From positions 7,677-71,676 of the forward strand of contig DAOMFL010000003.1 in the NCBI GenBank assembly GCA_035429805.1: 64,000 bases of DNA, given 5' to 3'. The position numbers were made by a program, and so were the translations under genes. The first letter of the stretch is position 1; the number at the start of each line of letters is the position of its first letter. The notes below the pieces were generated by a model that saw nothing but the letters and a program-made list of their open reading frames with translations, was not told where the DNA came from and made no database searches. The stretch comes from Burkholderiaceae bacterium (GTDB lineage Bacteria; Pseudomonadota; Gammaproteobacteria; Burkholderiales; Burkholderiaceae_F). Positions 3,152 to 64,000 of this stretch are shown here, one piece after another.

Positions 3152-3163
3152 AGCGACGCTGCG

Positions 3164-4769: not shown

Positions 4770-5168
4770 ATGAGTTCGGAAACAGGGCTGGCCCGCGTGG
4801 GGCTCGCCACATTGGCGCTGCTGCTCGCGGCCTGCGCGCCGGACGCCTGGCAGAACTACAAGGCGACCGGCTTCAACGACTACCTGAACGTCGTGCAGCA
4901 GAACTGCCAGCCGCTGTGGATCGGCGGCAACCTGATGCGGTCGATCGACGCGTCGGCCTGGCAGGGTCAGGGCGGCGGATTCGACCAGTGGCTCGATGCC
5001 ACGTCGCGCCTGTACTACAACCGCATGACGCCAGCCGAATACCGCAACTCGGTGCAGACACTCGTGATGAGCACAAGCGACTCACGCACCAATCAGTCGA
5101 TCGACTGCATCGTCGCGCAGCTTCCGCCGGATCGGCCGCGACAGCCGCCTGGCGGCATCGTGCGCTAG
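4770..5168 (+). CDS. Hypothetical lipoprotein
   Basis: 132 aa, signal peptide with lipobox LLAAC, AGGAGC RBS. No recognisable domain. Confidence 0.6.
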   Translation: MSSETGLARVGLATLALLLAACAPDAWQNYKATGFNDYLNVVQQNCQPLWIGGNLMRSIDASAWQGQGGGFDQWLDATSRLYYNRMTPAEYRNSVQTLVMSTSDSRTNQSIDCIVAQLPPDRPRQPPGGIVR

Positions 5169-5188
5169 GTCGGAGTCCGCGCCCGCAC

Positions 5189-6217: not shown

Positions 6218-6221
6218 CGCG

Positions 6222-6518
6222 TCAGCCGAGCCCGAGGAGGCGCGCGATGCGCGCCAGGTAGTCGGACCCTTTCAAGGCGTCGGCCACGACCTCGTCGGAC
6301 ACGGCTGCAAGCCGGTTCCGCACCCCGTGCAGCCCTTCGTGCACCTCGCCGTGGGATAGGTCGGGCGCGGCCAGCGCCTGCCGCAGTTGTTCGACTTCCA
6401 TGCGCAGCGTGTCGACGCTGGCGCCGCCTTCGCGCACGCGGGAAAGGTCGCGTTCGAGCTGCTCGACCAACTGAGCGACTTCATCGAGGTTCACGCGCGG
6501 TGATCCACTGCTGTTCAT
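6222..6518 (-). CDS. Small helical protein, DUF4404-like
   Basis: 98 aa, GGAGGA RBS, ends 4 nt before the AKR start. The tail ...SDYLARIARLLGLG resembles DUF4404 proteins (from memory). Confidence 0.55.
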   Translation of the reverse strand: MNSSGSPRVNLDEVAQLVEQLERDLSRVREGGASVDTLRMEVEQLRQALAAPDLSHGEVHEGLHGVRNRLAAVSDEVVADALKGSDYLARIARLLGLG

Positions 6519-6635
6519 GCCGACGTCCTCCGACAGACGGAAATGAGTCTACCCCGCACGCGCCCGGCCCTCTCTCGAAGGCATCAACACGACGCGGCCG
6601 GCGCATAATGGCCCTGGCCTGGGCGCTCAAGCCGG

Positions 6636-7310
6636 ATGAATCTTCTGCACGTTTCCGCCCCGTTCGAACTGGCCCTGCTGGGCTGGCTGGTCACTGTGCC
6701 GGCGGTCGCGCACGCCGCCTGGTCCGTCCGCCGCGGGTTCCTTCCCACCTCCTCCGCACAGCACGGCTGGTTCGCCGCGATCGTCACCGTTGCGCTGCTG
6801 TGGCTGCTGCACGTGCGTTCCCCGGTCGGCATGGATTTCGGCCTGCTGGGCTGCGCCCTGTTCGCTCTGGTCTTCGGCCGAGCGCGCGCCATCCTCGGCC
6901 TGATGTGCGCGCTGCTGCTTTACACGCTGCTGGACCATGGGCCGTGGCTGAATGTCGGCATCAACGGACTGCTGCTGGCGGTGCTGCCTGCGTGGCTCGC
7001 GTGCGCGCTGCAGCGTCAGCTCGAAAGGCGCCTGCCGAAGAACCTCTTCATCTTCATGATCGGCAACGGCATGTTCGTCACGCTGGTGACGACGGCGTGC
7101 GTCAGCCTGCTGCTGCTCGGCGTGTCGGTGCTCGATTCGGCCGGCGAACCACGGATGATCGCCGACCACCTCGCGTATTCGCTGCTGCTGGCCTGGGGCG
7201 AGGCGCTGGTGTCGGGCATGCTGTTCTCGGCCCTTGTCGTGTTCACCCCGGGTGCCGTGCTGACGTATCGCCAGGACCTCTACTTGCCGCCACGCCGCCG
7301 CCTGCACTGA
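6636..7310 (+). CDS. Polytopic inner-membrane protein, family not recognised with confidence
   Basis: 224 aa with about 6 hydrophobic helices. Possibly CbiM/ECF-permease-like, but no partner genes nearby. Confidence 0.55.
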   Translation: MNLLHVSAPFELALLGWLVTVPAVAHAAWSVRRGFLPTSSAQHGWFAAIVTVALLWLLHVRSPVGMDFGLLGCALFALVFGRARAILGLMCALLLYTLLDHGPWLNVGINGLLLAVLPAWLACALQRQLERRLPKNLFIFMIGNGMFVTLVTTACVSLLLLGVSVLDSAGEPRMIADHLAYSLLLAWGEALVSGMLFSALVVFTPGAVLTYRQDLYLPPRRRLH

Positions 7311-7369
7311 GCCGCCGCGCTGTCCGGCACTGCTATCCTGCCCGGCCCACTCCCGGAATCCCCGCCCGC

Positions 7370-9067
7370 ATGGCATCGCGCACCGGCGCCCGCCTCCTCG
7401 TCGACCAGCTGCTGATCCAGGGCGTGAATCAGGCGTTCTGCGTCCCGGGCGAGAGCTACCTCGCCGTCCTCGATGCCCTTTACGACGCGCGCGAGATGAT
7501 CAAGCTCATCGTCAATCGCCACGAGTCGGGTGCCGCCTACATGGCCGATGCCTACGCGCGGCTGACCGGGCAGCCCGGGGTCGTCTTCGTCACGCGCGGG
7601 CCCGGAGCAACGAATGCCTCGATCGGCGTCCATACAGCGTTTCAGGACTCGATCCCGCTGGTGATGTTCATCGGCCAGGTCGGCAACGAGTTTGCCGAGC
7701 GCGAGGCGTTCCAGGAGATCGACTATCGGCGCATGTTCGGGCCGATGACCAAGTGGGTCGCGCAGATCGACAGCGCCGCGCGCGTGCCGGAATTCGTCGC
7801 GCGCGCCTTCCAGACCGCGGCAAGCGGCAGACCGGGCCCGGTCGTGCTGGCGCTTCCGGAAGACATGCAGGCGCAGGTGGCGGATGTAAGCGACGCCTTG
7901 TGCCACCAGCCGGTGCAGGCGGCTCCGACGGACACGCAGATCGCGGGGATGCGGCGCCTGCTCGGCCGCGCGCGGCGCCCGCTGGTCATTGCAGGCGGCT
8001 CCGGCTGGACCGATGCCGCCTGTGACAACCTCAAGCGGTTTGCCGAGGCGAATTTCCTGCCAGTCGCGACCTCGTTCCGTTCCCAGGCCGTATTCGACAA
8101 CCGCCACCCGAACTACGTCGGCGACATCGGCATCGGCATCAATCCAAAGCTGGCGCAGCGCGTACGCGAAGCGGATCTGCTGATCGCCATCGGTCCGCGG
8201 CTCGGCGAGATGACGACATCGGGTTACACGCTGCTGACGGCGCCGGTGCCGTCACAGACGCTGGTGCACGTCCATGCGGGTGCCGAGGAACTCGGCCGTG
8301 TCTATCAGGCCACTCTCGCGATCAATGCCGGCATGCCGCAGTTCGCAGCGCGGCTGGCGATGATGATTCCGATCGAGGAACCGCCGTGGCGCGACGCACT
8401 GGTCGCGGCCCGCTCCGAGTACGAAGCCTGGCAGCAGCGGCCTGCGGTGTATGCGAATGCCCACCCGGCCCTCGACCTGTGGGAGGTCGTGCAGATCCTG
8501 CGGCGCGCCGTTCCGGAGGACGCGATCATCACCAACGGCGCCGGCAACTTCAGTGGGTGGGCCAACCGCTTCTGGCGCTACGCCGGGCTGCGCACCCAGC
8601 TCGCACCGACCTCGGGCAGCATGGGCTACGGCGTGCCGGCCGCCGTGGCCGCGAAGATCATTGCGCCGGAACGCACGGTGGTCTGCTTCGCCGGCGACGG
8701 CGACTTCATGATGACGGTGCAGGAACTCGCGACCGCGGTCCAGTACGGTGCCGGCGCGCTGTTCCTCGTCTTCAACAACGCGATGTACGGCACCATTCGC
8801 ATGCACCAGGAACGCGAGTTCCCCGGCCGGGAACACGGCACGCGGCTCGCCAATCCGGATTTCGCGCGCCTGGCGCAGTCCTTCGGCGCTTTCGGAGCGG
8901 CCGCGGGCACGACCGACGAGTTCGGCACAGCGCTGGCCCATGCGCTGGCTTTCATCCGCGAGAAGCACCTGCCGGCGCTGGTCGAACTACGCACCGACCC
9001 CGAAGTCATCACGCCGAACGCCACCCTGTCGGCGATACGCGCGACCGCGCGCCTGAACAGCCGCTAG
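7370..9067 (+). CDS. Thiamine-diphosphate-dependent enzyme, acetolactate-synthase-large-subunit-like
   Basis: 565 aa from ATG 7370. N-terminal ARLLVDQLLIQGVNQAFCVPGESYL; TPP/Mg motif GDGDFMM...NN. The upstream part of ORF 5897..9067 is non-coding shadow. Confidence 0.85.
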   Translation: MASRTGARLLVDQLLIQGVNQAFCVPGESYLAVLDALYDAREMIKLIVNRHESGAAYMADAYARLTGQPGVVFVTRGPGATNASIGVHTAFQDSIPLVMFIGQVGNEFAEREAFQEIDYRRMFGPMTKWVAQIDSAARVPEFVARAFQTAASGRPGPVVLALPEDMQAQVADVSDALCHQPVQAAPTDTQIAGMRRLLGRARRPLVIAGGSGWTDAACDNLKRFAEANFLPVATSFRSQAVFDNRHPNYVGDIGIGINPKLAQRVREADLLIAIGPRLGEMTTSGYTLLTAPVPSQTLVHVHAGAEELGRVYQATLAINAGMPQFAARLAMMIPIEEPPWRDALVAARSEYEAWQQRPAVYANAHPALDLWEVVQILRRAVPEDAIITNGAGNFSGWANRFWRYAGLRTQLAPTSGSMGYGVPAAVAAKIIAPERTVVCFAGDGDFMMTVQELATAVQYGAGALFLVFNNAMYGTIRMHQEREFPGREHGTRLANPDFARLAQSFGAFGAAAGTTDEFGTALAHALAFIREKHLPALVELRTDPEVITPNATLSAIRATARLNSR

Positions 9068-9079
9068 CGCGGCAGCAGC

Positions 9080-9424
9080 TCAGCCGACCTCGATCAGCTC
9101 GACCTCGAAGACCAGCGTCGCATTCGGCGGAATCACGCCGCCGGCACCGAATTCGCCGTAGCCCAGCCGCGGCGGAATCGTCAGCTTGCGCAGGCCACCG
9201 ACCTGCATGCCTTCCACCCCCTCGTCCCAGCCGGCAATCACCTGCCCGGCGCCGAGGCCGAAGGAAAAGGGCTGACCGCGGTCGCGGCTCGAATCGAACT
9301 TGCGGCCGTCGGTGAGCCAGCCGGTGTAGTGCACGGTGACGTCCTGTCCCGAACGCGCCTTCGCCCCGGTGCCGACGCGCACTTCTTCGTACTGCAGGCC
9401 ACTCGCAGTGGTGGTCAAGCTCAT
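9080..9424 (-). CDS. FKBP-type peptidyl-prolyl cis-trans isomerase
   Basis: 114 aa, ...[14 protein letters not shown]...[20 protein letters not shown]...[12 protein letters not shown]. Confidence 0.9.
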
Positions 9425-9699
9425 CGTTCTTTCCTCTCCGTTTCCAGTCCGGTGCGCAGCAATCTCTCGACCAGCTCGTTGAGCGGCTGGCCGGTTCGCC
9501 TAGACGTTTCGTGCAGCTCCTGCAGTAGCTCGCCCGGCAACTTGACCGCGAACGGTACCAGTCCGGCGGCGCGGTCGCGCTCGCGTTGCGCGCGCCGGTC
9601 CCCGGCCGCAGCCGTGTCGAACCGCGGCCCGGACTGGCGCAGCGCGTTGGCGATCTTCAGCCCCTTGCGTTTCTCGAGCTCCGTCTTCTTCATCGTCAT
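9421..9699 (-). CDS. Small basic protein with a possible ribbon-helix-helix C-terminal half
   Basis: 92 aa ([13 protein letters not shown]...). ATGA overlaps with both the upstream (9696-9699) and downstream (9421-9424) genes. [35 protein letters not shown] is RHH-like. Confidence 0.45.
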
Positions 9700-10676
9700 C
9701 GCAGATACTCCCGAGCGTGGTCCTGCGCATAGGCGCGCAGGATCGACTCGATGTCGCGGTCCGCGGTGAACCCGAGCGCAAGCGCGCGCGCCGCATCGAA
9801 GCGCGCCGGCCAGCCGTAGACGATCTTCGCGATCCGCTCGTCGGGCACGAAACGCACACGCTGCACGGCCGCTTCGCCGCCGACCTTGCTCAGTGCATCG
9901 AGCATCTCGCGTACCGACACGGTGAGGCCCGGCAGGCTGACCGCGCGCTGCCGGCCCCAGGCCACGGACGGCGACTCGTGCGCATGGATCAGGTTGCGCA
10001 CGGCCTGCGCCGGCGACATGACCCATAGCCGCGTGTCGGGCCCGACCGGACACAGCGCCTCCTCACCCGCCAGCGGTTCGCGCAGGATGCCGCTGGCGAA
10101 GCTCGACGCCGCCGCATTGGGCTTGCCCGGCCGCACGACGATTGTCGGCAGCCGCACCGCGCGCCCGTCGAGGAAGCCGCGCCGCGTGCAATCGCCCATC
10201 AGCAGTTCGCCGACCAGCTTCTGCACGCCATAGCTCGACTGAGGCGCCGGGATCGTCTGATCCTGCACCACGTCCGGCAGGTCGCCCCCGAACACCGCGA
10301 CCGAGCTCGCGAACACGAAGGTCGGCGGCGCGAGTTGCGCGCGGCAGGCGTCGAGCAGCGCGCGCGTACCGTCGACATTGACGCGCATGCCGAGGTCGTA
10401 GTCGGCCTCGGCCGCGCCCGACACCACCGCCGCCAGGTGGAACACGCTGTCGGCGCCAGCCATCGCTTCGGACACGACGGCGCGATCGGCAAGGTCGCCC
10501 TGGACGTAGCGCACGCGCGGGTCGGAGAACTCACCGGCCGCGCGCTGGGTGTCGAGCGCGGTGATACCGGTGATGGCGCGCGGCTCGCCGTCCCGCTGCA
10601 GCGTGCCGCGCTCGACCAGGGCACGGATCAGGCGCTGGCCGAGGAACCCCGACCCGCCGGTAATGACGACCTTCAT
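9696..10676 (-). CDS. NAD-dependent epimerase/dehydratase family protein (extended SDR)
   Basis: [16 protein letters not shown] Rossmann motif. ATG 10676 overlaps the stop of the upstream gene (ATGA). Confidence 0.85.
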   Translation of the reverse strand: MKVVITGGSGFLGQRLIRALVERGTLQRDGEPRAITGITALDTQRAAGEFSDPRVRYVQGDLADRAVVSEAMAGADSVFHLAAVVSGAAEADYDLGMRVNVDGTRALLDACRAQLAPPTFVFASSVAVFGGDLPDVVQDQTIPAPQSSYGVQKLVGELLMGDCTRRGFLDGRAVRLPTIVVRPGKPNAAASSFASGILREPLAGEEALCPVGPDTRLWVMSPAQAVRNLIHAHESPSVAWGRQRAVSLPGLTVSVREMLDALSKVGGEAAVQRVRFVPDERIAKIVYGWPARFDAARALALGFTADRDIESILRAYAQDHAREYLR

Positions 10677-54475: not shown

Positions 54476-54503
54476 GCCCCGCCGAGCGCGGGGCTTTTTG
54501 TTT
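54476..54503 (+). terminator. Rho-independent terminator
   Basis: GCCCCGC-CGAGC-GCGGGGC followed by TTTTTGTTT. Confidence 0.7.
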
Positions 54504-54551
54504 GCAGGCGCGCATCACGCTCCCGCAGCACGCGCGACCTACAATCGCCGC

Positions 54552-55634
54552 ATGAAAGTCAACGGCATACCGATGCGCTCGATCTGGCCGATCGGCGACG
54601 AAGCGGTCGGCGTGGTGGACCAGAGCGTCCTGCCGCACCGCTTCGAGACGCGTGAACTGGCGTCGGCGGCCGCCGTGGAGCACGCGATCCGGACCATGGT
54701 CGTGCGCGGTGCGCCGCTGATCGGCGTCACCGGAGCCTATGGACTTGCGCTGGCCCTGCGATCGGACGCTTCCGACGCCGCGCTGGCGGCCGCGCACACG
54801 CAGCTGCTGACGGCCCGTCCAACCGCAGTCAACCTGCGATGGGCGCTGGACCGCATGCGCGCTGTGGTCGCCGCGCTGCCACCGGCGCGGCGCGCCGCAG
54901 CAGCCTGGCTCGAGGCCGGGCGCATCGCCGAGGAAGACGTCGCGCTGAACCGCGCGATCGGCACCCACGGTGCTGCGCTGATGAGCGCGTTGCACACGCG
55001 CCATCGCCGCGCGATCAACGTCCTTACTCACTGCAATGCCGGCTGGCTCGCCGCTGTCGATCACGGCACGGCGCTCGCGGCGATCTACGCCGCCCACGAT
55101 GGCGGGACGCCGCTGCACGTGTGGGTCGATGAAACCCGGCCGCGCAACCAGGGTCTGCTGACCGCGTGGGAGCTGGCCGCCCATGGCGTGCCGCACACGC
55201 TGATCGTCGACAACGCGGGCGGGCACCTGATGCAGCATGGTCAGGTCGACCTAGTCATCGTCGGCGCCGACCGCGTCTCGGCGCGAGGCGACGTCGCCAA
55301 CAAAATCGGTACCTATCTCAAGGCGCTGGCGGCACATGACAACGGCGTTCCGTTCTATGCGGCGGTGCCGTCGCCGACGATCGACTGGACGCTCGCCGAT
55401 GGGGCGGCGATCCCGATCGAGGAGCGCGCCGCCGGCGAGGTGCTCAGCGTCCACGGCATCGACGTGAACGGCGCCCCGGCCGGCGTGCGGTTGGCGACCA
55501 GCACGACGCAGGTGGCCAACCCGGCGTTCGACGTGACGCCCGCGCGCCTGGTGACCGGCATCGTGACCGAGCGCGGGGTCTCGGAACCGGGGCGCCTGTC
55601 CGAGCTGTTTCCCGAGCAGCGGCGCGCGGCATGA
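54552..55634 (+). CDS. mtnA: S-methyl-5-thioribose-1-phosphate isomerase
   Basis: 360 aa, ...VVDQSVLPHRFE...VRGAPLIGVTGAYG...THCNAG...RPRNQG... typical MtnA/eIF-2B-related family. Confidence 0.9.
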   Translation: MKVNGIPMRSIWPIGDEAVGVVDQSVLPHRFETRELASAAAVEHAIRTMVVRGAPLIGVTGAYGLALALRSDASDAALAAAHTQLLTARPTAVNLRWALDRMRAVVAALPPARRAAAAWLEAGRIAEEDVALNRAIGTHGAALMSALHTRHRRAINVLTHCNAGWLAAVDHGTALAAIYAAHDGGTPLHVWVDETRPRNQGLLTAWELAAHGVPHTLIVDNAGGHLMQHGQVDLVIVGADRVSARGDVANKIGTYLKALAAHDNGVPFYAAVPSPTIDWTLADGAAIPIEERAAGEVLSVHGIDVNGAPAGVRLATSTTQVANPAFDVTPARLVTGIVTERGVSEPGRLSELFPEQRRAA

Positions 55635-56314
55635 CGCTACCCGCGGAAGACGGACCCGACCTGCGGGAGGCGGTCATCGGGACCGCCCGCGCGATGAACG
55701 CGGCGGGCATCAACGTCAACAAGTCCGGCAACGTCTCTGCGCGCTGCACCCGCGGAGCGCAGCACGGCTTCGTGGTGACGCCGACCGGCGTGCCCTATCG
55801 CGACCTGGGGACCGAGGACATCGTCTTCGTCGCGATCAGCGGCGCGGCTGCGGGCACGCAGGCGCCTTCTTCGGAGTGGCGCTTCCATCGCGACATCTAC
55901 GCGTCGCGGCCGGAGTTCGGCGCCATCGTCCACACCCACTCGCCGCAGGCCACGGCACTGGCCTGCCATGGCCGGCGGCTGCCGGCGTTCCATTACATGG
56001 TGGCGATGGCCGGCGGGAGCGATATCCGCTGCGCGCCGTACGCCACCTTCGGGACACAGGAATTGTCGGACCACGCACTGCACGCGCTGGCCGGCCGCCG
56101 CGCCTGCCTGCTGGCCCATCATGGCGTCATTGCCTGCGGCGAGTCGCTCGACCAGGCGCTGGCGCTTGCGATCGAGGTCGAGCACCTGGCCGGCGTCTAC
56201 CTTGCCGCGTGCGCACTGGGTGAACCGCCGCAACTCGACGCGGAGGAAATGCAGCGGGTACTGGAGCGCTTCAAAGGCTACGGACCCCGCGCGGCCAGCC
56301 GGCGCCCCGGCTGA
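55631..56314 (+). CDS. Class II aldolase/adducin-family protein (MtnB dehydratase or 5-methylthioribulose-1-P aldolase type)
   Basis: 227 aa, ATGA overlap with mtnA. His-ligand region ...IVHTHSP...AHHG.... Confidence 0.8.
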   Translation: MTLPAEDGPDLREAVIGTARAMNAAGINVNKSGNVSARCTRGAQHGFVVTPTGVPYRDLGTEDIVFVAISGAAAGTQAPSSEWRFHRDIYASRPEFGAIVHTHSPQATALACHGRRLPAFHYMVAMAGGSDIRCAPYATFGTQELSDHALHALAGRRACLLAHHGVIACGESLDQALALAIEVEHLAGVYLAACALGEPPQLDAEEMQRVLERFKGYGPRAASRRPG

Positions 56315-56410: not shown

Positions 56411-57115
56411 ATGACGCCGCTGAGTTCGTTCGAAACCGGGTCTGCCGAGCAGTCCGGCAGCTTCCGCGGTGCGGTTCGGGCGACGATGTGGCCGACGCGT
56501 TCGCTGGTTTCGAAGGAACGCTGGTTCGATGAGCTGTACGTGTGGACCGAGGGTGGCAGCGCCAGCACGACCCAGCGCGCGCGCATCCAGCTCGAGGCGA
56601 TCAAGGACGCCTTCCTTTGGCTGGAGTACGACCTCATCGAACGGATCGGCGTGACGATCTCGTTCGGAACGATCGAGCGCGCGATCGATCCGCTGACGGC
56701 CCTGTTCGAAGACAACGTGCTGCTGGCGCACCGCCTGTATGTGCTCGTCAGGGGAGCGCCGCAGCGACTGCGCTCGCGCTACCGGCTGCGCGGATTCGCC
56801 GACATGCTGCGCGGCCTGAAGATTGCCGTCGGCTACCGGCTGACGGCGCCGCGAGTCAGCATGGAACTGAGCGGCGTCGACCTGGTGCAGCCGACATTCG
56901 CGAAAGTCCTTGCACCGCCCACTGCACGCGCCGAAACCTGGAGCGACCTCGCGCTCGAAGTGCGGGCGCTGGGACTGGACACACGATCGACGATCGTCGG
57001 CGCTGTCGAGACACGACCCCAGCGCGACAGCGCAGTCAATGCGGGCTTTGAACTGGCACAGGGCCGTGCCGTGCGCCAGCCTTATGCTCCGCCCCCATTA
57101 CCAACAAAAAGCTGA
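56411..57115 (+). CDS. Degenerate EAL-like domain protein (stand-alone, catalytic residues not conserved)
   Basis: 234 aa. Collinear with EAL landmarks at correct spacing but mutated: DELYVW for EALxRW, VTISFG for VNLS, VLVRG for ExxE, VGYR for DDFG, FAKV for KID, GAVE for EGVE. QG is retained. Confidence 0.55.
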   Translation: MTPLSSFETGSAEQSGSFRGAVRATMWPTRSLVSKERWFDELYVWTEGGSASTTQRARIQLEAIKDAFLWLEYDLIERIGVTISFGTIERAIDPLTALFEDNVLLAHRLYVLVRGAPQRLRSRYRLRGFADMLRGLKIAVGYRLTAPRVSMELSGVDLVQPTFAKVLAPPTARAETWSDLALEVRALGLDTRSTIVGAVETRPQRDSAVNAGFELAQGRAVRQPYAPPPLPTKS

Positions 57116-57189
57116 CACCGAGCTTGGCTGTGACGACCGATTTGGCAGAAAATTCAAGGACGTTCGCGACCCAGGAGCGCGAACCTGCC

Positions 57190-57921
57190 ATGGCCGTCCC
57201 CGAACCACGCCCCGAACTCGGTACGCATCAGGTCGAACTCGACCCCACCGTCGATCCGCTGAGCCGCTTTGGCTCACGCGTTCGCGCGCTGGTGTGGCCG
57301 ACGCGCACGCTGGTGGGGGCCGAACGCTGGTTCGACGAGCTCTACGTCTGGACCGCCGATTTCGAGCCGGACCGCTCGCTGCGCGCGCAGATCCAGCTGG
57401 CCGCGCTGGAACACGCCTTCATCATGCTCGAGCACGAGCGCGTCGAGCGCGTCGCCGTCACGATTTCTTTCGGTTCGGTCGAACGCTCGCTCGAGGCATT
57501 GGTGCGCGCTCTCGACTCTCATCGCCTGACTGCGCACCGGCTGTCTGTACTGCTGCGCGGCGCGATGGAACGGATGCGCTGGCCGTACCGCGTGCGCGAG
57601 TTCATCGATCTGCTGCGCAGCTACCAGGTGCCGGTCGGATACCGCTTCGCGGAACCGCGCGCCAGCATGGAAATGAGCGCGATCGACTTCGTCGCGCCCG
57701 ACTTCGCCAAGATGCTGGCCCCGATCTCCGTGCGCGAAGAGACCTGGTTCGAGATGTCTCGCGAAGTGAACGCCCTCGGCCTCACGCGTGAGACCTTCGT
57801 GCTGGCTGGCATCGAGCGCGAAGAACAACTCAGGCTCGCCAAGCAGACCGGCTTCGTGCTGGGCCAGGGCCGGGCGCTGAAGAAGCCCTACTTTCCGCCA
57901 CGGGTGATGCGGCCGCGCTGA
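57190..57921 (+). CDS. Degenerate EAL-like domain protein, paralogue of 56411..57115
   Basis: 243 aa from ATG 57190 (AGGAG RBS; TTG 57124 alternative). Roughly half of positions are identical to the upstream gene, with the same degenerate motifs (DELYVW, VTISFG, VGYR, FAKM, AGIE, QG). Confidence 0.55.
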   Translation: MAVPEPRPELGTHQVELDPTVDPLSRFGSRVRALVWPTRTLVGAERWFDELYVWTADFEPDRSLRAQIQLAALEHAFIMLEHERVERVAVTISFGSVERSLEALVRALDSHRLTAHRLSVLLRGAMERMRWPYRVREFIDLLRSYQVPVGYRFAEPRASMEMSAIDFVAPDFAKMLAPISVREETWFEMSREVNALGLTRETFVLAGIEREEQLRLAKQTGFVLGQGRALKKPYFPPRVMRPR

Positions 57922-58160
57922 CACAGGCTGTCGGTCCTGCAAAGATAGCCGCCAACTGCCGGCACTTCGCCGGCCAATTCGTTTCATCCTCGCCGGGCTG
58001 CGCGGAATTACCGAAGCCGAAGCGCTCATTTCGGCCCTTCCGAATACCGCATACCCGGTAGTGTGCCTTCCTGCACGCGTTGCACTCACTCGATCGGCGA
58101 AGTCCGGCGGGCGTGCGCGATCAATTGACTTAATCGGGACGCCCCGACCAAAGGAAGGCA

Positions 58161-58724
58161 ATGAAACTGACTCGCTTCACACTTGCTGTCGTAGCAGCCG
58201 CGGCGACCGCTGTTCCGCTGGCGGCACACGCGGCGTCCAGTTCTCAAACGGGCGCAGGCTCGATCAACACAACGGTAAATCTCAATTTCAGCGTCACGAT
58301 TCCGCGTTACATCTTCCTGCGGGTCGGAAGCGCAGCCAGCCTCGATACGCTGACTTATGCGCCCACGGTAGCGCAGATGCTGGCATCGACCCCTGTTCAG
58401 GCGACCGGTGGCGACACCGGTGGCGGCTCCGACGTCACTTACCAGGTCTTCGGCAACGCCGGCAACATGACGCTCGCGGCATCGAACCTGACGCAACTCA
58501 CGTCGGGGGGCAACAACATCCCGAGTTCGACCCTGTCAGTCACGACACAGGCGGGCAGCGTGACGGCTCCCGCATTCAATGGCAGCACGGCGCTGACAGC
58601 GAGCGCGGCCGGCATTGTCAATCAGACGGGCTCCTGGCGCTACGTGTGGACCAACCCGGCGGCGACGGTGTATGCCGCCGGTACTTACACGGGAACGGTC
58701 ACCTACACGCTGTCTGCGCCGTAA
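58161..58724 (+). CDS. Secreted pilin-like subunit 1 (candidate major subunit)
   Basis: 187 aa, AGGAAGG RBS, signal peptide ...LAAHA|AS. Alternating N-terminal strand TVNLNFSVTI; C-terminus GSWRYVWTNPAATVYAAGTYTGTVTYTLSAP. Thr/Ser/Gly/Ala-rich with no Cys. Confidence 0.6.
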   Translation: MKLTRFTLAVVAAAATAVPLAAHAASSSQTGAGSINTTVNLNFSVTIPRYIFLRVGSAASLDTLTYAPTVAQMLASTPVQATGGDTGGGSDVTYQVFGNAGNMTLAASNLTQLTSGGNNIPSSTLSVTTQAGSVTAPAFNGSTALTASAAGIVNQTGSWRYVWTNPAATVYAAGTYTGTVTYTLSAP

Positions 58725-58777
58725 ACGGCCAACGCGCCAGGCGCTCTTTGCGGCGGCCGCTGCCGCAGGAAATTCGG

Positions 58778-58808
58778 GCATCGGCCGGCGTGATCCGCCG
58801 GCCGATGC
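58778..58808 (+). promoter_or_regulatory. 13-bp perfect stem-loop after subunit gene 1 (possible attenuator or mRNA-stability element)
   Basis: GCATCGGCCGGCG-TGATC-CGCCGGCCGATGC followed by ATTT. Located in the 120-nt gap between subunit genes 1 and 2. Confidence 0.5.
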
Positions 58809-58844
58809 ATTTGCAGACCCAGGAAGACTTTCGCCAGCATCGTC

Positions 58845-59417
58845 ATGCCAAACCGCTTCGCATCACGTGTCCTCGCGATCGCAGCATTGCTGCTCGCGGG
58901 TCCGTGCGCGCACGCGGCGTCCAATACCGCAAGTGCCGCTTCGGGCACGCTGTCGACGTCGGTCAACCTGCAGTTCAGCATCACGATCCCACGCTTCGTT
59001 TTCCTTAGAGTGGGTGCAGCGGCATCGGTCAACACGCTGACCTACGCGCCGACGGCCGCACAGATGGCGTCAGGCACCGGAGTGCTCGCGACGGGAGGTG
59101 ACACAGGGGCCGGCAACTCCGATGTCACGGTGCAGGTCACCGGAAACACCGGGAACGTGACACTGACCGCCGTGACCGGCAACCCGAACCTCGTGAGCGG
59201 CGGCAACACCATGCCCTGGTCGACCCTGACGGCGACCAGCCCGACCGGTTCGATCACGGCACCGCCTTTCAACGCAGGCAGCACCGTCCTCACCGCCGTG
59301 GGCGGTGTCGTCAACCAGACCGGCTCCTGGCGCTACACGTGGACCAACCCGCCGAGCACCGTCTACGCGGCCGGAACCTATTCCGGCACGGTGACCTACA
59401 CTGCCGCCGCGCCTTAG
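58845..59417 (+). CDS. Secreted pilin-like subunit 2 (paralogue)
   Basis: 190 aa, signal peptide ...PCAHA|AS. SVNLQFSITI strand; C-terminus GSWRYTWTNPPSTVYAAGTYSGTVTYTAAAP. More than half of positions match subunit 1 by eye. Confidence 0.6.
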   Translation: MPNRFASRVLAIAALLLAGPCAHAASNTASAASGTLSTSVNLQFSITIPRFVFLRVGAAASVNTLTYAPTAAQMASGTGVLATGGDTGAGNSDVTVQVTGNTGNVTLTAVTGNPNLVSGGNTMPWSTLTATSPTGSITAPPFNAGSTVLTAVGGVVNQTGSWRYTWTNPPSTVYAAGTYSGTVTYTAAAP

Positions 59418-59427
59418 GCCGCGACTC

Positions 59428-60099
59428 ATGGTGAATCCGGTGGGGACCGAATTCAAGCGACGACTTCTGCTCGTATACGCGGCGGCAGCTTGTGCAGCGG
59501 CGCTTGTCCTCGTTCCCCCTCCCGCGGAGGCCTACACGGTCAACATCACCGCCGGGTCCCGCACCTTGTACTTGCAGGTCGGCGTTGGCACGTTCACAGG
59601 CACTCTCCAGGGCGGCGGCACTCCCGGCGTGAACGCGACGGTCAACGTCGTGTCAGTGAATGTTCCCGCGGCGCAGGTCGGCACCGGCGCGGCACAGGCG
59701 ATGACGACCAACAGCACGGCAGCCAACAGTTTCTGGGACAACTTCGCCTTTTGCAACCCGCCTGCGCAACTCTACGTCGGGGGTTTCTATCGCGTGCCGA
59801 GCGGCGCTGGTGCCGGCGCCGGTGCGACGCTCACCGCCAACGTTCCAGCGACTCTCAGCAACGGCAGTGGCGGCACCATTCCCTTTTCGCAGATCTCCTG
59901 GACCAGTTCCGGCAACAGCGACAGCGGTGCGCAGCCGTTCCCGGCAGGAACGTTCGTTGGAGGTTCGCTTCAGACGATCGGTACGATCGCCCGTAATCAG
60001 TGGGCGGAAAGCTGTCTGACGTTCTCATACGCCAATACGGCCGTGGTCCCTGCCGGCACGTATACGGGAACCGTGGTCTACACGCTTTCCGCACCGTGA
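59428..60099 (+). CDS. Secreted pilin-like subunit 3 (larger, divergent paralogue with two Cys)
   Basis: 223 aa, signal peptide ...PPAEA|YT. YTVNITAG/TLYLQVGVG strands, GAGAGAGA stretch, Cys in FAFCNPP and AESCLTF. C-terminus PAGTYTGTVVYTLSAP. Confidence 0.55.
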   Translation: MVNPVGTEFKRRLLLVYAAAACAAALVLVPPPAEAYTVNITAGSRTLYLQVGVGTFTGTLQGGGTPGVNATVNVVSVNVPAAQVGTGAAQAMTTNSTAANSFWDNFAFCNPPAQLYVGGFYRVPSGAGAGAGATLTANVPATLSNGSGGTIPFSQISWTSSGNSDSGAQPFPAGTFVGGSLQTIGTIARNQWAESCLTFSYANTAVVPAGTYTGTVVYTLSAP

Positions 60100-60551
60100 T
60101 GATGCGACTCGCCTTGCTGGCCTGTGCCGCCCTGACGTCGTTCGCGGCTGAGGCGGCGACCTATCGGGTCGAGGAGGCAGGGACGTTTCCACAGGAATCG
60201 ACCGCCCCGATGCGGTGGCGCCAGATTGCGCCGTCACGGGGCGGCGACAACACGGTCGAAGGCACGACGACTGTGAACGTGCGGCTCAATCTGGCCCCGT
60301 GGCAGAACCGGGTGGGACGGCTGTTCATGGTGCTGCCTGAACAACCCCTCACGCCGGTGCGCGTCAGCTGGTCGACCCAGGGTCGATTGCTTTCAGGACA
60401 GCTGGTTTCCGGGCACCGGGCGCTGGTGTATGCCGGCCCGATCACGATGCCTCTGCTGGAGGAAACGCTGGTGCTGAAGTTCGAGGCCGATGGCACCCGG
60501 CTCAACAGCGCGCAGCGGCTCCAGTTTCACTTTGAGATTGATATCGACTGA
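60099..60551 (+). CDS. Secreted 150-aa protein of unknown function in the fibre cluster
   Basis: ATG 60099 overlaps the preceding TGA (TGATG). Signal peptide ...FAAEA|AT. Beta-rich, TTTVNVRLNL strand. No shared C-terminal pilin motif. Confidence 0.5.
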   Translation: MMRLALLACAALTSFAAEAATYRVEEAGTFPQESTAPMRWRQIAPSRGGDNTVEGTTTVNVRLNLAPWQNRVGRLFMVLPEQPLTPVRVSWSTQGRLLSGQLVSGHRALVYAGPITMPLLEETLVLKFEADGTRLNSAQRLQFHFEIDID

Positions 60552-60552
60552 C

Positions 60553-61359
60553 ATGCAGGCTTCGATCATTCGCATCGTGGTGCGGGCAGCGGCCGCCATC
60601 GTCATCGGGGGCATTTCCTGCGGCGCGGCTGCGCAGGGCTTCGCGGCGCTGGTGGCGCCGCCCCGATTCGAATTGCACGCCCGACCGGGCGAGCGGTTGC
60701 GCGACGTGATCGAGATAACGAACGGCGCGAAGCAGCCTGCCCGCTATCGCTTTCGCACCGCCGACTGGACGCTGGGAGCCGACGGGCAGATCGTCGTCAT
60801 CGATCAACTGGCTCCGAACAGCTGCCGGCCCTGGGTCGCTATCGAGCGCAGCAGCGCCGAGGTGCCGCCCGGCGGCCGTCTGCGCTATCGGTTCGAGATC
60901 ACGACTCCCGCCGACGCACCCCCTGCCGAGTGCCGTTTCGCCGTGCTGATTGAGGGCGACGAACCGGCGATTGCGGGCGGCGACAATTTCAAACTGCCGG
61001 TGATGGGGCGCATCGCCATCGTCGTCTACGTCACTGTGGGAGACGCCGCGCCGCAGATTGAGATCGAGCGCTCTGGCGTGGTGACCTTCAACGGCCAGCG
61101 CACTCCCATCATCCAGGTCCGCAATACCGGAACCGCGCACGGTCGCCTGAGCGGCTTCCTGACCGGCGTTGACGCGCAGGGTCGACGCTGGGACATTTCT
61201 CCGTCGTCGCTGCCGATCCTGCCCGGCGAGTCACGCGCCATCGCGCTGTCGGCTGCCAACGACCGGAATGAGCCGGTACCGGTGCCCCTGCCAATCACCA
61301 TCCGCGGCACGCTGGAATGGACAGGGGGACGCCTGCCGTTCGAGCACCGCTTCGACTGA
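60553..61359 (+). CDS. PapD-like two-domain periplasmic chaperone candidate
   Basis: 268 aa, starts 1 nt after the previous stop. Signal peptide ...GAAAQG. Domain 1: LVAPPRFELHARPGERLRDVIEITN...ECRFAVLIEG. Domain 2: GRIAIVVYVTVG...IIQVRNTGTAHGRLSG...LPGESRAIAL. Confidence 0.5.
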   Translation: MQASIIRIVVRAAAAIVIGGISCGAAAQGFAALVAPPRFELHARPGERLRDVIEITNGAKQPARYRFRTADWTLGADGQIVVIDQLAPNSCRPWVAIERSSAEVPPGGRLRYRFEITTPADAPPAECRFAVLIEGDEPAIAGGDNFKLPVMGRIAIVVYVTVGDAAPQIEIERSGVVTFNGQRTPIIQVRNTGTAHGRLSGFLTGVDAQGRRWDISPSSLPILPGESRAIALSAANDRNEPVPVPLPITIRGTLEWTGGRLPFEHRFD

Positions 61360-61364
61360 TTTCA

Positions 61365-63317
61365 ATGCGGGCCTCCGCGGTAACGCTGCTGCTTGCAGCC
61401 ATCGCCGGGCTGTGCCCGATGACCGCACGCTCCCAGGACAAGGCGCAGGCGACGGAGGACTTGGCGCCGTCCTATCAGGATCGCCTGATCGATGACGGCA
61501 GACTCGCGATCGACCTCTGGGATGACTACGCACCGCTAAATAACACCGACGGTTTGCCACGCGGACTGAGACTCGATGGTCTCTGGTCGCAGACCCGCCG
61601 TAACGGAATCAGCACAACGCAGTCCGGACTCGGCATCGGCGCCTTCCTTGCGACGCCGCAGTACGGTTCGTTCAGCTTCGAGGGCCTGCTCACGAACGGC
61701 GAAGACACATCGATCGCCACGCTGTGGCAACGCGACATGCCTTTCGATGGCGGGTGGCGTGCCAGCAACGGCCTCGGCATGCTGAATTCGCCCGCGATCG
61801 ACCTCGTGCGGTTTCAGCCGCGCATTTTCCTCGCCACGACCCCGATGCTGGGCGCCGTCACCGACTGGCGTGGACCGCAGTCGACGCAAGTAGTCGGCGG
61901 CTTCGGCGAACCGGGCACCTACCAAGGTGCCTACATTCCACAGTTTCGCCGCCTAGGCGGTCAGCTTTCCAACCTCGGCGCGCAGCGGGCTGTGGATCCC
62001 AACTGGAGCATTGGATTCCAGTACGCCGGCGCCAACGACGTCACGAGTGGATTCCAGTTGCTGCCGAGTGCAACGCCGTTTAGCACGCGCTCGCTGTACC
62101 TGGGAACATCTCGCCAGGACGCGACAAGCCGGTTCCAGTTCAACGCGATCGAAAGCCAGAACAGTGTCACTGAGTCACGACACGGCGCCTGGTTCGACGG
62201 ATACCAGCAGAGCGGACGCCTGGCGCAGTCGTTCGGGCTGTTCTACCTCGATCCCACTCTGGCCTGGGGCAACCAGCCGGTGGCGAACGACATGCGCGGC
62301 GGCTACTACCGCCTCTTTTTCGCCAGCATGCGCTGGCAGTGGGATGCCGGCGCCGACTACGTCGCGCCCTTGCGCAACGAGTCGGGGTCCGCAACAACCT
62401 TTCTCAACGGCAGCCTGCGCCACCAGTTGCTGAGTGACGTCAGCGCCGGGGTTGGCGCCAATGTCCGACTGGCCGACTCCACGGCGTGGCAGGGGTTCGC
62501 CTACATCGAGCGGGTCGATCGGCTGATGACTGGGCGCGTGCAGCTGAACCAGGCAGAAGACGGCGCCCGCCGCGAATCGCTGGTCACATTCAACCAGACC
62601 TGGAGCATGCCGGTGGGCTCACGGCTGAACACGACGGTCGGTGCGGGTCGCTATCACGGCGACCAGGTTGCCCCCTCGAACCAGCTGATGCTCGCCGCTT
62701 ACGGAGGCGGCGACATCGCCCGCAACCTGGCGCTCGATCTGAACGTGCAATGGACCCGCTGGTACGACGTCACAGCTGAGCCGACGAGCACTACCGGCAG
62801 CCTTGTAATGACGTGGAGCATCCTGCCGCAACTGCGGCTCATCGCGACCGCCTACCGCAGCCAGGCGACAGCACGGCAGCCGCTCACTGTCACGTCACCG
62901 CTCAATCCGACGATTCCTCTGACAAACACAAGCCTCAACGACACCGGCGCATTCCTGGTCCTGCGGTTCGAGTCCCGCGCGGGCAGCCTTGGAGGTCCGC
63001 TCGGCGGCCCGCCGGGCGCCGGCGCCGGCCGCGTCCTCGGTAAGGTGTTCCTCGACACCAACGACAGCGGCCGACTCGAGGCCGGGGAACAGGGAGCGGC
63101 CAACGTGACCGTGGTTCTCGATGGCCGCTACACGACGCGCACTGACGGAGAAGGCCGCTTCGAGTTTCCGGCCGTCGCATCCGGCCGGCATCAGATCACG
63201 GTCGTGCCCGACAATCTTCCGCTGCCCTGGGTGCTGGCCAATGACGGGCGCTTCGAAGTCGACGTCCCGGTTCGTGACTCGGTGAGCGTCGACATCCCGG
63301 CTCGACGCATGCGCTGA
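61365..63317 (+). CDS. Large outer-membrane beta-barrel with Gly/Pro linker and a C-terminal Cna-B/carboxypeptidase-regulatory-like beta-sandwich domain
   Basis: 650 aa from ATG 61365. Signal peptide, 20 or more amphipathic strands ending in aromatic residues, ...GAFLVLRF, linker GSLGGPLGGPPGAGAG, then GKVFLDTNDSGRLEAGEQGAANVTVVLDGRYTTRTDGEGRFEFPAVASGRHQITV. Confidence 0.6.
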   Translation: MRASAVTLLLAAIAGLCPMTARSQDKAQATEDLAPSYQDRLIDDGRLAIDLWDDYAPLNNTDGLPRGLRLDGLWSQTRRNGISTTQSGLGIGAFLATPQYGSFSFEGLLTNGEDTSIATLWQRDMPFDGGWRASNGLGMLNSPAIDLVRFQPRIFLATTPMLGAVTDWRGPQSTQVVGGFGEPGTYQGAYIPQFRRLGGQLSNLGAQRAVDPNWSIGFQYAGANDVTSGFQLLPSATPFSTRSLYLGTSRQDATSRFQFNAIESQNSVTESRHGAWFDGYQQSGRLAQSFGLFYLDPTLAWGNQPVANDMRGGYYRLFFASMRWQWDAGADYVAPLRNESGSATTFLNGSLRHQLLSDVSAGVGANVRLADSTAWQGFAYIERVDRLMTGRVQLNQAEDGARRESLVTFNQTWSMPVGSRLNTTVGAGRYHGDQVAPSNQLMLAAYGGGDIARNLALDLNVQWTRWYDVTAEPTSTTGSLVMTWSILPQLRLIATAYRSQATARQPLTVTSPLNPTIPLTNTSLNDTGAFLVLRFESRAGSLGGPLGGPPGAGAGRVLGKVFLDTNDSGRLEAGEQGAANVTVVLDGRYTTRTDGEGRFEFPAVASGRHQITVVPDNLPLPWVLANDGRFEVDVPVRDSVSVDIPARRMR

Positions 63318-63323: not shown

Positions 63324-64000
63324 TCATGCCGCCCACGGTCGCGCGGCGGCGTGCACAGCCCGCAGGTGCCTTTCGATCTCCCGGGTGTCGACACCCTGGC
63401 GGACCGCGATGCGCTCGCGCGCCAGGGCACTCAGCCCGGGCGCGTTGGTCAGCTGTTCAAGGAGCCCGGCCGCCACCGACAGGTCATTGAGCTCGCCCTG
63501 GAGGTCCTGCAGGCGCGCCAGCGCCTCGACATATCGTTGCGTCGCTTCCCGAGGCAGTGCGACCGAGCACACATCGAGTGCGTAGCGCAGCCGCTTGGCG
63601 AGGATGCGCAGCCGGTGCCGTTCTTCGGAAGACAGCGTCGCGAAGTCCTCAGCGCCGGCAAACAGCCGCCTGTGCGCTCTGGCCAGTGCGCGCGCGGCAA
63701 GCTTCCGCAGCGTGCGGCCCGCGGGCGGCGGCGTCATCATCCATGCCTGCAATCGCAGCGCGAGCCGCGCGTAGCGAGCCGTTGCCAGTGCCGCGAGCAC
63801 CCGGGACCGCGCGGCTTCGCGCTGCACCGCGGCCTGCCGGAGCATCTGCTTCGTGTCGCCATCGAGCGCGGGCGGCGTGCCGGAGAGCAGCATCGGCAGC
63901 GTCTGCGTCAGCAGCACATCGGCGTCGCGCGCGGCACCGAGCAGCCGCGCGGCCCAGCGGAGTTCGGCGGCGAGCGTCTTCGGAAAGTCGCGGTGCCTGC
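63324..64000 (-). CDS. CHAD-domain protein, C-terminal part (5' end beyond the window)
   Basis: The frame stays open to the window edge (...RHRDFPKTLAAELRWAARLLGAARDADVLLTQ...). CHAD-like repeats HRLRILAKRLRYALD. The listed M at 63917 is an internal GTG. Confidence 0.7.
   Translation of the reverse strand, partial: RHRDFPKTLAAELRWAARLLGAARDADVLLTQTLPMLLSGTPPALDGDTKQMLRQAAVQREAARSRVLAALATARYARLALRLQAWMMTPPPAGRTLRKLAARALARAHRRLFAGAEDFATLSSEERHRLRILAKRLRYALDVCSVALPREATQRYVEALARLQDLQGELNDLSVAAGLLEQLTNAPGLSALARERIAVRQGVDTREIERHLRAVHAAARPWAA

Follow-up and report, generated by a model that had tools for sequence, protein, structure and literature searches.

Does a compact group of six genes for secreted proteins in a member of the Burkholderiaceae encode a surface fiber and, if so, by which pathway would that fiber be assembled? 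The cluster, here termed g1 to g6, occupies positions 58,161 to 63,317 of the window, i.e., the whole 64,000-nt stretch of contig DAOMFL010000003.1 (assembly GCA_035429805.1) that was analyzed. An earlier note had described it as an uncharacterized set of surface-fiber genes that resembles, without matching, a chaperone-usher (CU) fimbrial operon. CU pili are the best-understood adhesive fibers of Gram-negative bacteria, and their classical, alternative and archaic classes rest on a conserved usher. The analysis presented here indicates that the cluster probably encodes a very divergent, non-classical CU-type pilus system, in which g5 would act as chaperone, g1 to g3 as fiber subunits and the barrel protein g6 as outer-membrane pore. 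The literature searched covered classical, archaic and alternative CU systems, WxL clusters and unrelated new fibers, and no description of this cluster type was found in it.

Sequence relationships of the chaperone-like protein g5

For comparison with g5, CU chaperone profiles were built from the fim, yad, yeh and ecp operons of E. coli K-12 and from alternative-class plasmid operons of Providencia, Pantoea and Sphingomonas. In hhalign, the g5 family aligned with six alternative-class chaperones over 184 columns covering both domains (Prob 94.2%, E 1.1e-7). This link is stronger than the one between classical (FimC-type) and alternative chaperones that served as a control (Prob 74.6%, E 2.6e-5), whereas the g5 family scored poorly against the classical chaperones FimC, YadV and YehC (Prob 4.5%, E 0.0089). 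Such comparisons required small family profiles; when FimC or FimD was used as a single sequence, no match to the g5 and g6 families was obtained. By profile-profile comparison, g5 is a periplasmic protein with two immunoglobulin (Ig)-like domains of the PapD/CsuC/EcpB superfamily. The PapD_N and PapD_C families (PF00345 and PF02753) were not matched by g5 at E<=1 or by any of 36 relatives at E<=0.1. The claim of the earlier note that the cluster does not match a CU operon therefore stands in so far as no library family was found, but it is too strong for g5, which has a remote yet significant EcpB-like relative.

The most characteristic feature of non-classical chaperones is a highly conserved arginine in strand F1 of domain 1 (Arg89 in CsuC and EcpB) that anchors the C-terminal carboxylate of the subunit; in EcpB, the domain-2 pair Arg148/Tyr169 completes this anchor (PMC4654587). 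Arg89 is aligned with R128 of g5, a residue without variation in 36 sequences and with at least 90% conservation in a set of 49, and g5 thus carries the Arg89-type signature of the non-classical group. R198, the counterpart of EcpB Arg148 in domain 2, does not vary among the 49 sequences of the broad alignment; EcpB Tyr169 falls on the non-aromatic P221. The G1 donor residues of EcpB (A111, A113, A115 and I117) are aligned with residues 148-160 of g5, a candidate donor strand in which the matches include L148, V150 and I154. In domain 2, the motif N-T-G-N-A is aligned with N-T-G-T-A in the comparison of g5 with EcpB-type chaperones.

A second relationship leads to the WxL-interacting proteins (WxLIP) of Firmicutes. 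In domain 1, relatives of g5 consistently gave sub-threshold Pfam matches to WxLIP_PGBD (DUF916) and to Ig-like ASH/HYDIN/NEW3 domains. PF06030 appeared below threshold in several members (best E 4.3e-5, profile positions 22-118 of 121), and PF11797 was not matched by the family in Pfam. A profile of 49 g5 sequences retrieved EfmWxLIP1 of Enterococcus faecium from the PDB (9i25, 9i1y; E 3e-5), a single independent WxLIP of E. faecalis was matched by the family with an hhalign Prob of 80%, and a five-sequence WxLIP profile aligned over 218 columns and both domains (Prob 96.2%, E 2.1e-9). At the profile level, g5 has the tandem DUF916 (PGBD) and DUF3324 (HBD) Ig-like domains of a WxLIP. An AlphaFold prediction has a hairpin strand of WxLIP inserted into the WxL beta-sandwich, which it completes in parallel (PMC10599100). 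Strand completion of this type is, by analogy, the same principle as donor-strand complementation, and the hairpin region is likewise aligned with residues 148-160 of g5. Judged by sequence profiles, g5 belongs, as a remote member, to the non-classical CU chaperones and is at the same time a homolog of WxLIP. Since it matches WxLIP (96%) and EcpB-type chaperones (94%), and these two do not match each other (Prob 0.3%, E 0.22), the comparisons suggest that WxLIP (DUF916/DUF3324) belongs to the CU-chaperone superfamily. A link between CU chaperones and WxLIPs was not found in the literature searched.

The main rival to a pilus builds on the WxLIP match, the strongest sequence link of g5. According to this explanation, the cluster would be the diderm counterpart of the WxL clusters of Firmicutes, a surface complex without polymerization in which g5 stays strand-bound to g1-g3, as has been proposed for WxLIP and its WxL partners, while g6 exports the complex and anchors it as a platform or adhesin patch. 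We consider it unlikely. Nearly all WxLIPs carry a C-terminal transmembrane helix, whereas the chain of g5 stops immediately after domain 2, at residue 268. Because this helix is absent, g5 is regarded as soluble, periplasmic and chaperone-like. Further evidence on the rival is given with the subunits and with g6.

Subunit proteins g1, g2 and g3

The earlier note had listed g1-g3 as paralogs. The g1 and g2 proteins share 59% identity, and the g1/g2 family matches the g3 family with an hhalign Prob of 99.7% (E 1.7e-25), g1 residues 47-187 being aligned with g3 residues 44-223. The paralogy is real and goes beyond the C-terminal motif, because the homology spans g1 from residue 47 to the C-terminus. 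The motif itself, G-T-Y-x-G-x-V-x-Y-T-x-x-x-P-COOH, is common to all three proteins. Essentially all of the ~150 subunit orthologs from 80 loci retain its core, V-x-Y-T-x-x-x-(P/L)-COOH, with the C-terminus at a constant distance from the conserved Tyr.

An alternating-hydrophobic strand near the mature N-terminus, which the note had ascribed to each of the three, was seen in g1. Here, V39-L41-F43-V45-I47 lie in an N-terminal extension of ~23 amino acids (aa); the pattern is conserved in 18 diverse g1/g2 orthologs, in which F43, I47 and P48 are invariant. This extension is a candidate donor strand. The g3 protein has only ~9 aa (YTVNITAGS) ahead of its first core strand, two cysteines (C109 and C196) that are invariant in 27 orthologs, and an insert of ~35 aa relative to g1/g2 in the alignment of these orthologs. 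Mature g1 and g2 contain no cysteine, in agreement with the reported lack of a Cys pair. The view of g1-g3 as like subunits is thus borne out by their full-length paralogy but not in its entirety, since the short extension, the Cys pair and the insert mark g3 as a distinct minor subunit rather than a third equivalent pilin.

The AlphaFold2 (AF2) model of g1, computed from a 60-sequence alignment (predicted local distance difference test, pLDDT, 87.6), has a beta-sandwich after the signal peptide and extension. Two segments, 31-50 (pLDDT ~90) and 164-181, are confidently placed and have no beta-ladder partner according to DSSP. When the model was compared with the PDB in Foldseek, almost all of the top 50 matches were CU pilins (TM-score ~0.5). 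The list is headed by the alternative-class pilins CfaB and CS17 and includes the PapG pilin domain, FimF/G, CsuA/B, PapA, Caf1 and CooA. At the level of the predicted fold, g1 is pilin-like, which agrees with the CU resemblance seen in the earlier note. As regards an incomplete Ig fold with a donor extension, the combination expected of a CU subunit, a weak list of pilin folds (best E 3.6e-3), a conserved extension and unpaired segments were found. The TLP-1a/b fibrils from the CryoSeek pond sample, uncharacterized donor-strand-exchange fibers (PMC11494351), were considered as relatives of g1 and dropped, as they are not among its fold matches.

These results also bear on the WxL-like explanation. 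WxL proteins end similarly to g1-g3, with Y-x-T-T-L-x-W-x-L-x-x-x-P, and this similarity, together with the link between g5 and WxLIP, prompted the idea that g1-g3 could be WxL domains. It was rejected, as the hhalign Prob stayed <4% against profiles of four small and eight mixed WxL domains. Moreover, a conserved alternating-hydrophobic extension would be purposeless in a complex without strand exchange, the fold matches of g1 are pilins that polymerize, and the variable number and fast evolution of the major-subunit genes (see below) are typical of fiber shafts.

The C-terminal strand of g1-g3 resembles that of pilin-like proteins (annotated as hypothetical or fimbrial) adjoining the alternative-class ushers retrieved for comparison, e.g., NYTGTLTLLVAPE in Sphingomonas and GDYSGVIVMKFSATS in Pantoea. 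The Sphingomonas example comes from a plasmid of Sphingomonas daechungensis (locus L090, 3793-8070) with an alternative-class CU cluster whose usher is split into a TcfC-part and a CooC_C-part open reading frame (ORF). Two pilin-like proteins of this cluster, annotated as hypothetical, end in NYTGTLTLLVAPE and SYAGTLTLVIGPE, very like the C-terminus of g1-g3; EAL and GGDEF genes adjoin the cluster.

Conservation and distribution

Relatives were sought in one genome per species and found in 447 genomes, of which the best 80 loci were examined. The order g1-like (one to three copies)-g3-g4-g5-g6 is present in every one of the 80 loci with sufficient flank. Because synteny is conserved in 80 genomes, g1-g6 are considered real genes rather than chance ORFs. 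The carriers belong to Burkholderiaceae, Usitatibacter/Usitatibacteraceae, Casimicrobiaceae, Steroidobacteraceae and Nevskiaceae. Identity to the proteins of the window across the loci amounts to 30-45% for g1/g2-like proteins (up to 78% in the two closest loci), 50-79% for g3, 40-77% for g4, 47-73% for g5 and 36-68% for g6. With 30-45% compared to 47-79% for g3 and g5, the major subunits g1 and g2 are the fastest-evolving parts of the system, as would be expected of exposed fiber subunits.

One locus (L017), from a metagenome-assembled genome (MAG) of a betaproteobacterium, contains two diverged whole clusters (215-4253 and 4630-10116) arranged back to back in opposite orientation; its second copy is 42% (g5) and 30% (g6) identical to the window. 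The system has therefore been duplicated and diversified within genomes.

In the databases, the proteins are largely without a family. The g1, g2 and g6 proteins are 100% identical to proteins of a Burkholderiaceae MAG, encoded on a contig of 118 kb, that are annotated as 'hypothetical protein' (g1, g2) and 'carboxypeptidase-like regulatory domain-containing protein' (g6). No match of any kind was obtained for g1-g5 in Pfam and NCBIfam, and for g6 of the window a sub-threshold C-terminal SdrD_B/CarboxypepD_reg-like match was the only one. PDB searches with the six single sequences found nothing beyond this C-terminal domain of g6. The families that the earlier note had named for profile searches (PF00345, PF02753, PF00577, PF05229, DUF4402 and DUF1120) and other fimbrial families gave no match at E<=1 for any of the six proteins. 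They were likewise absent from the match lists of the family members scanned against Pfam (36 for g5, 51 for g6, 18 for g1/g2 and 27 for g3). The description as families outside those on record is thus maintained.

More than 2,900 relatives of g5 are present in the protein collection, almost none with a Pfam domain; a few carry the source annotation 'fimbrial chaperone', 'PapD' or 'COG1470'. The profile search with g5 among representative proteins gave 3,084 clusters at 50% identity. As the matches listed go down to E ~1e-24, no family of known annotation is included among them.

The outer-membrane protein g6

In the AF2 model of g6 (51 sequences, pLDDT 78.6, predicted TM-score 0.71), a signal peptide is followed by a disordered N-terminal stretch, a large beta-barrel and a single C-terminal Ig-like domain. 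The barrel has ~26 strands, a count read from the DSSP secondary structure string only; known ushers have a 24-strand barrel. In Foldseek, the ushers FimD and PapC occupy the first ten places among the PDB matches (E 1.5e-12 to 4.6e-9), followed by MtrB and TonB-dependent receptors, all with TM-scores of ~0.4. It is only this ranking that favors a usher, and it again conforms to the CU resemblance proposed earlier; in its predicted fold, g6 is usher-like.

Within the disordered stretch, the residues Y37, D39, L41, I42, G45 and L47 are at least 90% conserved in the 51 sequences, at a pLDDT <50. By analogy with a TonB box, this segment (aa 35-50) may be a linear docking peptide that replaces the missing usher N-terminal domain. 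In all 51 members, the C-terminal domain gave Pfam matches to SdrD_B and CarboxypepD_reg (best E 4.5e-7), and SdrD was its match in the PDB (E 1.4e-5). A CarboxypepD_reg score is also obtained for the C-terminal domain of the alternative-class usher EcpC (E 1.2e-4).

A usher in the established sense belongs to PF00577 or to the CooC/TcfC type and combines an N-terminal domain, 24 strands, a plug and two C-terminal domains; g6 does not have this architecture. Between strands 5 and 6, where ushers carry the plug, an 18-aa loop is the only insert and none of plug size is present. The statement in the earlier note that the 650-aa protein differs in architecture from ushers of 800-900 aa is supported by the model. 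By these definitions, the cluster has a CU chaperone and no CU usher. Either g6 is a usher that has diverged extremely and been stripped of parts, or a large barrel of unrelated origin was recruited to the same function.

Several observations weigh against a CU-type pilus. The TM-scores of g6 to ushers (0.38-0.41) are no better than that to the porin MtrB (0.43), which is the highest. In Pfam, PF00577, CooC_C and TcfC match none of the 51 g6 relatives, and hhalign gave a Prob of 1.4% against FimD-type and 0.2% against EcpC-type ushers, whereas these two usher classes detect each other with a Prob of 96%. Three elements on which the mechanism of known ushers centers are missing from the model: an N-terminal domain, a plug and one of the C-terminal domains. 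For the subunits, the pilin fold matches of g1 are weak (best E 3.6e-3, none <1e-3, TM-score ~0.5), and g1-g3 have no profile link to any pilin family in hhalign, Pfam or PDB profiles. PF05229, PF00419, PF04449, PF16449, DUF4402 and DUF1120 were not matched by g1-g3 at E<=1 or by the 18 and 27 orthologs, and NCBIfam and the PDB profile search were empty for the subunits. An hhalign Prob of 55% between the g1/g2 family and alternative-class pilins was discounted, as it covers the signal peptide and N-terminus only. In g5, EcpB Pro60 falls on R99 in the hhalign alignment, although a proline in strand D1 is invariant across the chaperone superfamily (PMC4654587). The nearly invariant P93 is located six residues upstream of R99 beside an alignment gap, and a register shift is a possible cause of the mismatch. 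Finally, all of the best 80 loci come from uncultured MAGs of soil or freshwater, with no cultured carrier.

A second rival explanation takes g6 for a large porin or uptake channel of the ordinary kind and g1-g5 for unrelated beta-sandwich proteins of the periplasm or surface, e.g., substrate-binding or cell-envelope proteins, with no assembly pathway among them. This would account for the missing sequence relation of g6 to ushers. It would also fit the generic way in which large barrels match in Foldseek, where TonB-dependent receptors and Occ porins reach E <1e-5 as well, and the weak match of one of the 51 g6 relatives to MtrB_PioB (PF11854, E 1.9e-3). Yet the genes keep strictly the same order and translational coupling in 80 genomes, and the homology of g5 to dedicated subunit-binding chaperones extends to conserved binding residues. 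In addition, three subunits are paralogs with pilin-like folds and an invariant C-terminus, and an enzymatic or ligand-binding domain is found in none of the five proteins. We therefore regard this explanation as highly improbable.

The MtrB similarity can also be read in the sense of the WxL-like rival, since MtrB, the structure with the top TM-score, is a barrel that sheathes a resident protein partner. As for an MtrB/PioB conduit proper, in which a 26-strand barrel is encoded beside multiheme cytochromes, no CxxCH motif is found in any cluster protein; such a conduit is an unlikely match because cysteines are absent from mature g1 and g2 and limited in g3 to two, which are far apart.

The orphan protein g4

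The g4 gene is present in 79 of the 80 loci, invariably between g3 and g5. Its product does not have the C-terminal motif of the subunits. A 20-sequence profile found no match in Pfam or the PDB, and in hhalign comparisons with ushers, chaperones, pilins, WxL proteins and g1-g6 the Prob was <7% throughout. The characterization as an additional secreted protein that fits no family is thereby upheld. The proposals that g4 is a detached N-terminal or plug domain of a usher, a chaperone or a pilin were rejected on the basis of these scores. Its degree of conservation is like that of g5, from which we infer that g4 is more likely an assembly factor of the periplasm than an adhesin exposed at the surface; it is thus a candidate accessory of assembly.

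Proposed assembly

For the preferred reading as a CU-type pilus system, we infer the following route together with its donor-strand complementation and exchange, the resulting fiber and the functions of g3, g4 and the domains of g6. All six products would be exported by Sec. In the periplasm, g5 would capture the unfolded subunits g1, g2 and g3, with its G1-like strand (aa 148-160) filling the groove left in the subunit by the missing last Ig strand. R128 and R198 would clamp the subunit C-terminus (YTxxxP-COOH) in the interdomain cleft in the manner of EcpB and CsuC. The complexes of g5 with the subunits would then dock at g6, whose predicted ~26-strand barrel should have room for folded Ig-like subunits. 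At this site, the chaperone strand would be displaced by the N-terminal extension of an incoming g1 or g2 (donor-strand exchange), and the fiber would grow outward through the pore. With its conservation, Cys pair and short N-terminal extension, g3 is assigned as a minor subunit that would be incorporated in single or low copy as tip or adaptor. The g6 protein is without the N-terminal domain and plug of ushers; candidates for recruitment and gating are g4 and, in g6 itself, the conserved, disordered N-terminal peptide and the SdrD_B-like C-terminal domain.

Comparison with known surface systems

A close likeness is to alternative-class CU systems (alpha, class 5/ECP), such as EcpA-E, CFA/I (CfaABCE) and CS1 (CooBACD). 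Here too, one or more major pilin genes come first, followed by chaperone and pore genes on the same strand. Further shared traits are the EcpB/EcpE-type relationship of g5, with equivalents of Arg89 and Arg148 and a G1-like strand, the best structural matches of g1 (CfaB and CS17), and a CarboxypepD_reg-like C-terminal domain in both g6 and EcpC. The C-terminal motif, written as G-x-Y-x-G-x-x-x-x-x-x-S/A, resembles that of pilin-like neighbors of alternative-class ushers. In contrast, g6 has 650 aa compared to ~840 and no N-terminal domain, TcfC/plug domain or CooC_C signature, g1-g3 match neither the Fimbrial_CS1 nor the MatB profile, and no gene for a two-domain tip adhesin is found in the cluster, which has the single-domain paralog g3 and the orphan g4 instead.

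Archaic (sigma) systems, such as Csu of Acinetobacter and CupE of Pseudomonas, would share the non-classical chaperone mechanism with the cluster. Archaic and alternative chaperones have a register-shifted donor strand, a two-domain carboxylate anchor and the signature Arg (PMC4654587). CsuA/B is among the fold matches of g1 (TM-score ~0.53), and several small paralogous subunits and an environmental, biofilm-type distribution are also shared. Unlike archaic systems, the cluster has no usher of ~830 aa and no CsuE-like two-domain tip. SCPU (PF05229) gave no signal in g1-g3 or 45 orthologs, consistent with the absence of spore-coat-U/Csu motifs in the earlier note. With classical systems (type 1 and P pili: FimC-FimD, PapD-PapC), the cluster shares the set of subunits, two-Ig chaperone and large barrel, and FimD and PapC head the PDB fold matches of g6. 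It differs from them by the lack of any PF00345, PF02753, PF00577 or PF00419 signal, by an Arg8/Lys112 anchor that is not identifiable in g5 and by major subunits without a Cys pair.

The WxL clusters of Firmicutes comprise small and large WxL proteins and WxLIP (DUF916-DUF3324-transmembrane helix). Homology of both Ig-like domains of g5 to WxLIP, small secreted beta-sandwich partners and a conserved aromatic C-terminal strand ending in Pro are held in common. The cluster differs from them in that g5 has no transmembrane helix, g1-g3 are not detectably WxL (no PF13731 match), and the host is a diderm with an outer-membrane barrel and no LPXTG protein in the cluster. WxL complexes are described as peptidoglycan-bound platforms and not as fibers.

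Gene arrangement and genomic neighborhood

The coordinates of the cluster and its surroundings are given in Table 1. The tight packing of six same-strand genes was confirmed from the ORF coordinates, the spacings being, in order, 120 nt, 10 nt, a TGATG stop/start overlap (60097-60101), 1 nt and 5 nt. Of the six genes, g1 alone is preceded by a clear Shine-Dalgarno sequence (AAGGAAGG). As the strong ribosome-binding site is confined to g1, g2-g6 are apparently translationally coupled. The N-termini of all six products have one or two basic residues, a hydrophobic stretch and an A-x-A-like site; these signal-peptide calls, which agree with the earlier ones, are readings by eye and not predictor output. 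The GC content of the cluster (0.655, window 0.675) ranks 17 of 118 among windows of the same size (standard deviation 0.015). There is no meaningful GC shift, as had been stated before, because 0.655 lies within the spread of these windows.

Table 1 Positions of genes and sequence features in and around the g1-g6 cluster (window coordinates)
Feature	Position	Strand	Length or residues	Description
g1	58161-58724	+	187 aa	ORF; major-type fiber subunit (proposed)
g1 N-terminal extension	58233-58301	+	aa 25-47	ASSSQTGAGSINTTVNLNFSVTI; ~23 aa, candidate donor strand
g1 C-terminal strand motif	58680-58721	+	aa 174-187	GTYTGTVTYTLSAP-COOH
Inverted repeat, g1-g2 spacer	58778-58808	+	13 bp, 5-nt loop	Perfect repeat GCATCGGCCGGCG / CGCCGGCCGATGC
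g2	58845-59417	+	190 aa	ORF; second major-type subunit (proposed)
g3	59428-60099	+	223 aa	ORF; minor-subunit paralog of g1/g2 (proposed)
g4	60099-60551	+	150 aa	ORF; secreted orphan, ~131 aa mature
g5	60553-61359	+	268 aa	ORF; two-Ig-domain chaperone-like protein, periplasmic
g5 R128 codon	60934-60936	+	aa 128	Aligned with Arg89 of EcpB/CsuC
g5 candidate G1 donor strand	60994-61032	+	aa 148-160	LPVMGRIAIVVYV; alternating hydrophobics
g5 R198 codon	61144-61146	+	aa 198	Aligned with EcpB Arg148, domain 2
g6	61365-63317	+	650 aa	ORF; outer-membrane component (predicted)
g6 conserved N-terminal motif	61467-61514	+	aa 35-50	P-x-Y-x-D-R-L-I-D-D-G-x-L; predicted periplasmic
g6 beta-barrel	61536-62981	+	aa 58-539	~26 strands, DSSP of model
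g6 C-terminal beta-sandwich	63024-63308	+	aa 554-648	SdrD_B/CarboxypepD_reg-like, D-x-N-D-x-G-type motif
Methionine-salvage genes	54498-56314	+		Upstream of the cluster
EAL-like gene, first of pair	56411-57115	+		Directly upstream of g1, tandem
EAL-like gene, second of pair	57124-57921	+		Directly upstream of g1, tandem
Terminator-like hairpin	57958-57974			3' of the gene preceding g1
CHAD-domain gene	63324-63917	-		Convergent on the end of g6

The inverted repeat in the spacer between g1 and g2 is not followed by a T-run at its 3' side, and the folding z-score of the whole spacer (-1.03) is not significant. Hairpins after major-pilin genes stabilize or attenuate the transcript in fimbrial operons. 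By analogy, the repeat could stabilize or attenuate the g1 transcript, and as an mRNA stem-loop it may tune the ratio of g1 to the downstream products. A promoter and terminator scan of the cluster region found no sigma-70-like site, and terminator-like sites occurred at chance level.

The two tandem genes directly upstream of g1 are paralogs. An EAL signal is at most vestigial in them (PF00563, E 0.0027, in the last 30 residues of one protein and none in the other). Counterparts with 64-88% identity also precede the cluster in three further loci (L007, L011 and L012) and are not present upstream of it in the two closest loci, L001 and L002. The pair may represent degenerate regulators of the operon of the cyclic di-GMP type. 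The CHAD-domain gene downstream (PF05235, E 3.8e-29) is found at the same position in the closest loci (L001-L007 and L014), with 41-51% identity, and a functional link to the cluster is not evident. Farther upstream, a methylthioribose-1-phosphate isomerase-like gene of the IF-2B family overlaps a class II aldolase gene. This housekeeping (methionine-salvage) context supports a resident chromosomal location of the cluster. The neighborhood and phyletic comparison recommended by the earlier note yielded a gene order that is conserved in the 80 loci among the 447 species genomes with relatives.

Implications for donor-strand-based surface assembly

The cluster type is common in uncultured soil Burkholderiales, Steroidobacterales and Nevskiales. 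It retains the logic of the CU chaperone, with the usher exchanged for a much simpler barrel and an unfamiliar protein (g4) added. Beyond the reading as a divergent CU-type system, it is conceivable, though rather doubtful at present, that the cluster type is an unrecognized branch of donor-strand-based surface assembly between CU and WxL systems, with its pore as a new 'minimal usher'. In such a pore, g4 (in trans) and the short N-terminal peptide may supply recruitment and gating. A position of g5 as a bridge between CU chaperones and the WxLIPs of Gram-positive bacteria would mean that CU pili and WxL surface complexes go back to the same ancestor, and this sequence bridge is a testable evolutionary lead.

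If fibers are made, the CU principle would be found to work with a pore that lacks two parts deemed essential in current models, the plug and the N-terminal domain, and with this cluster donor-strand exchange at a pore could be studied in a minimal system. A function would then also be available for six 'hypothetical' families in thousands of metagenomic records.

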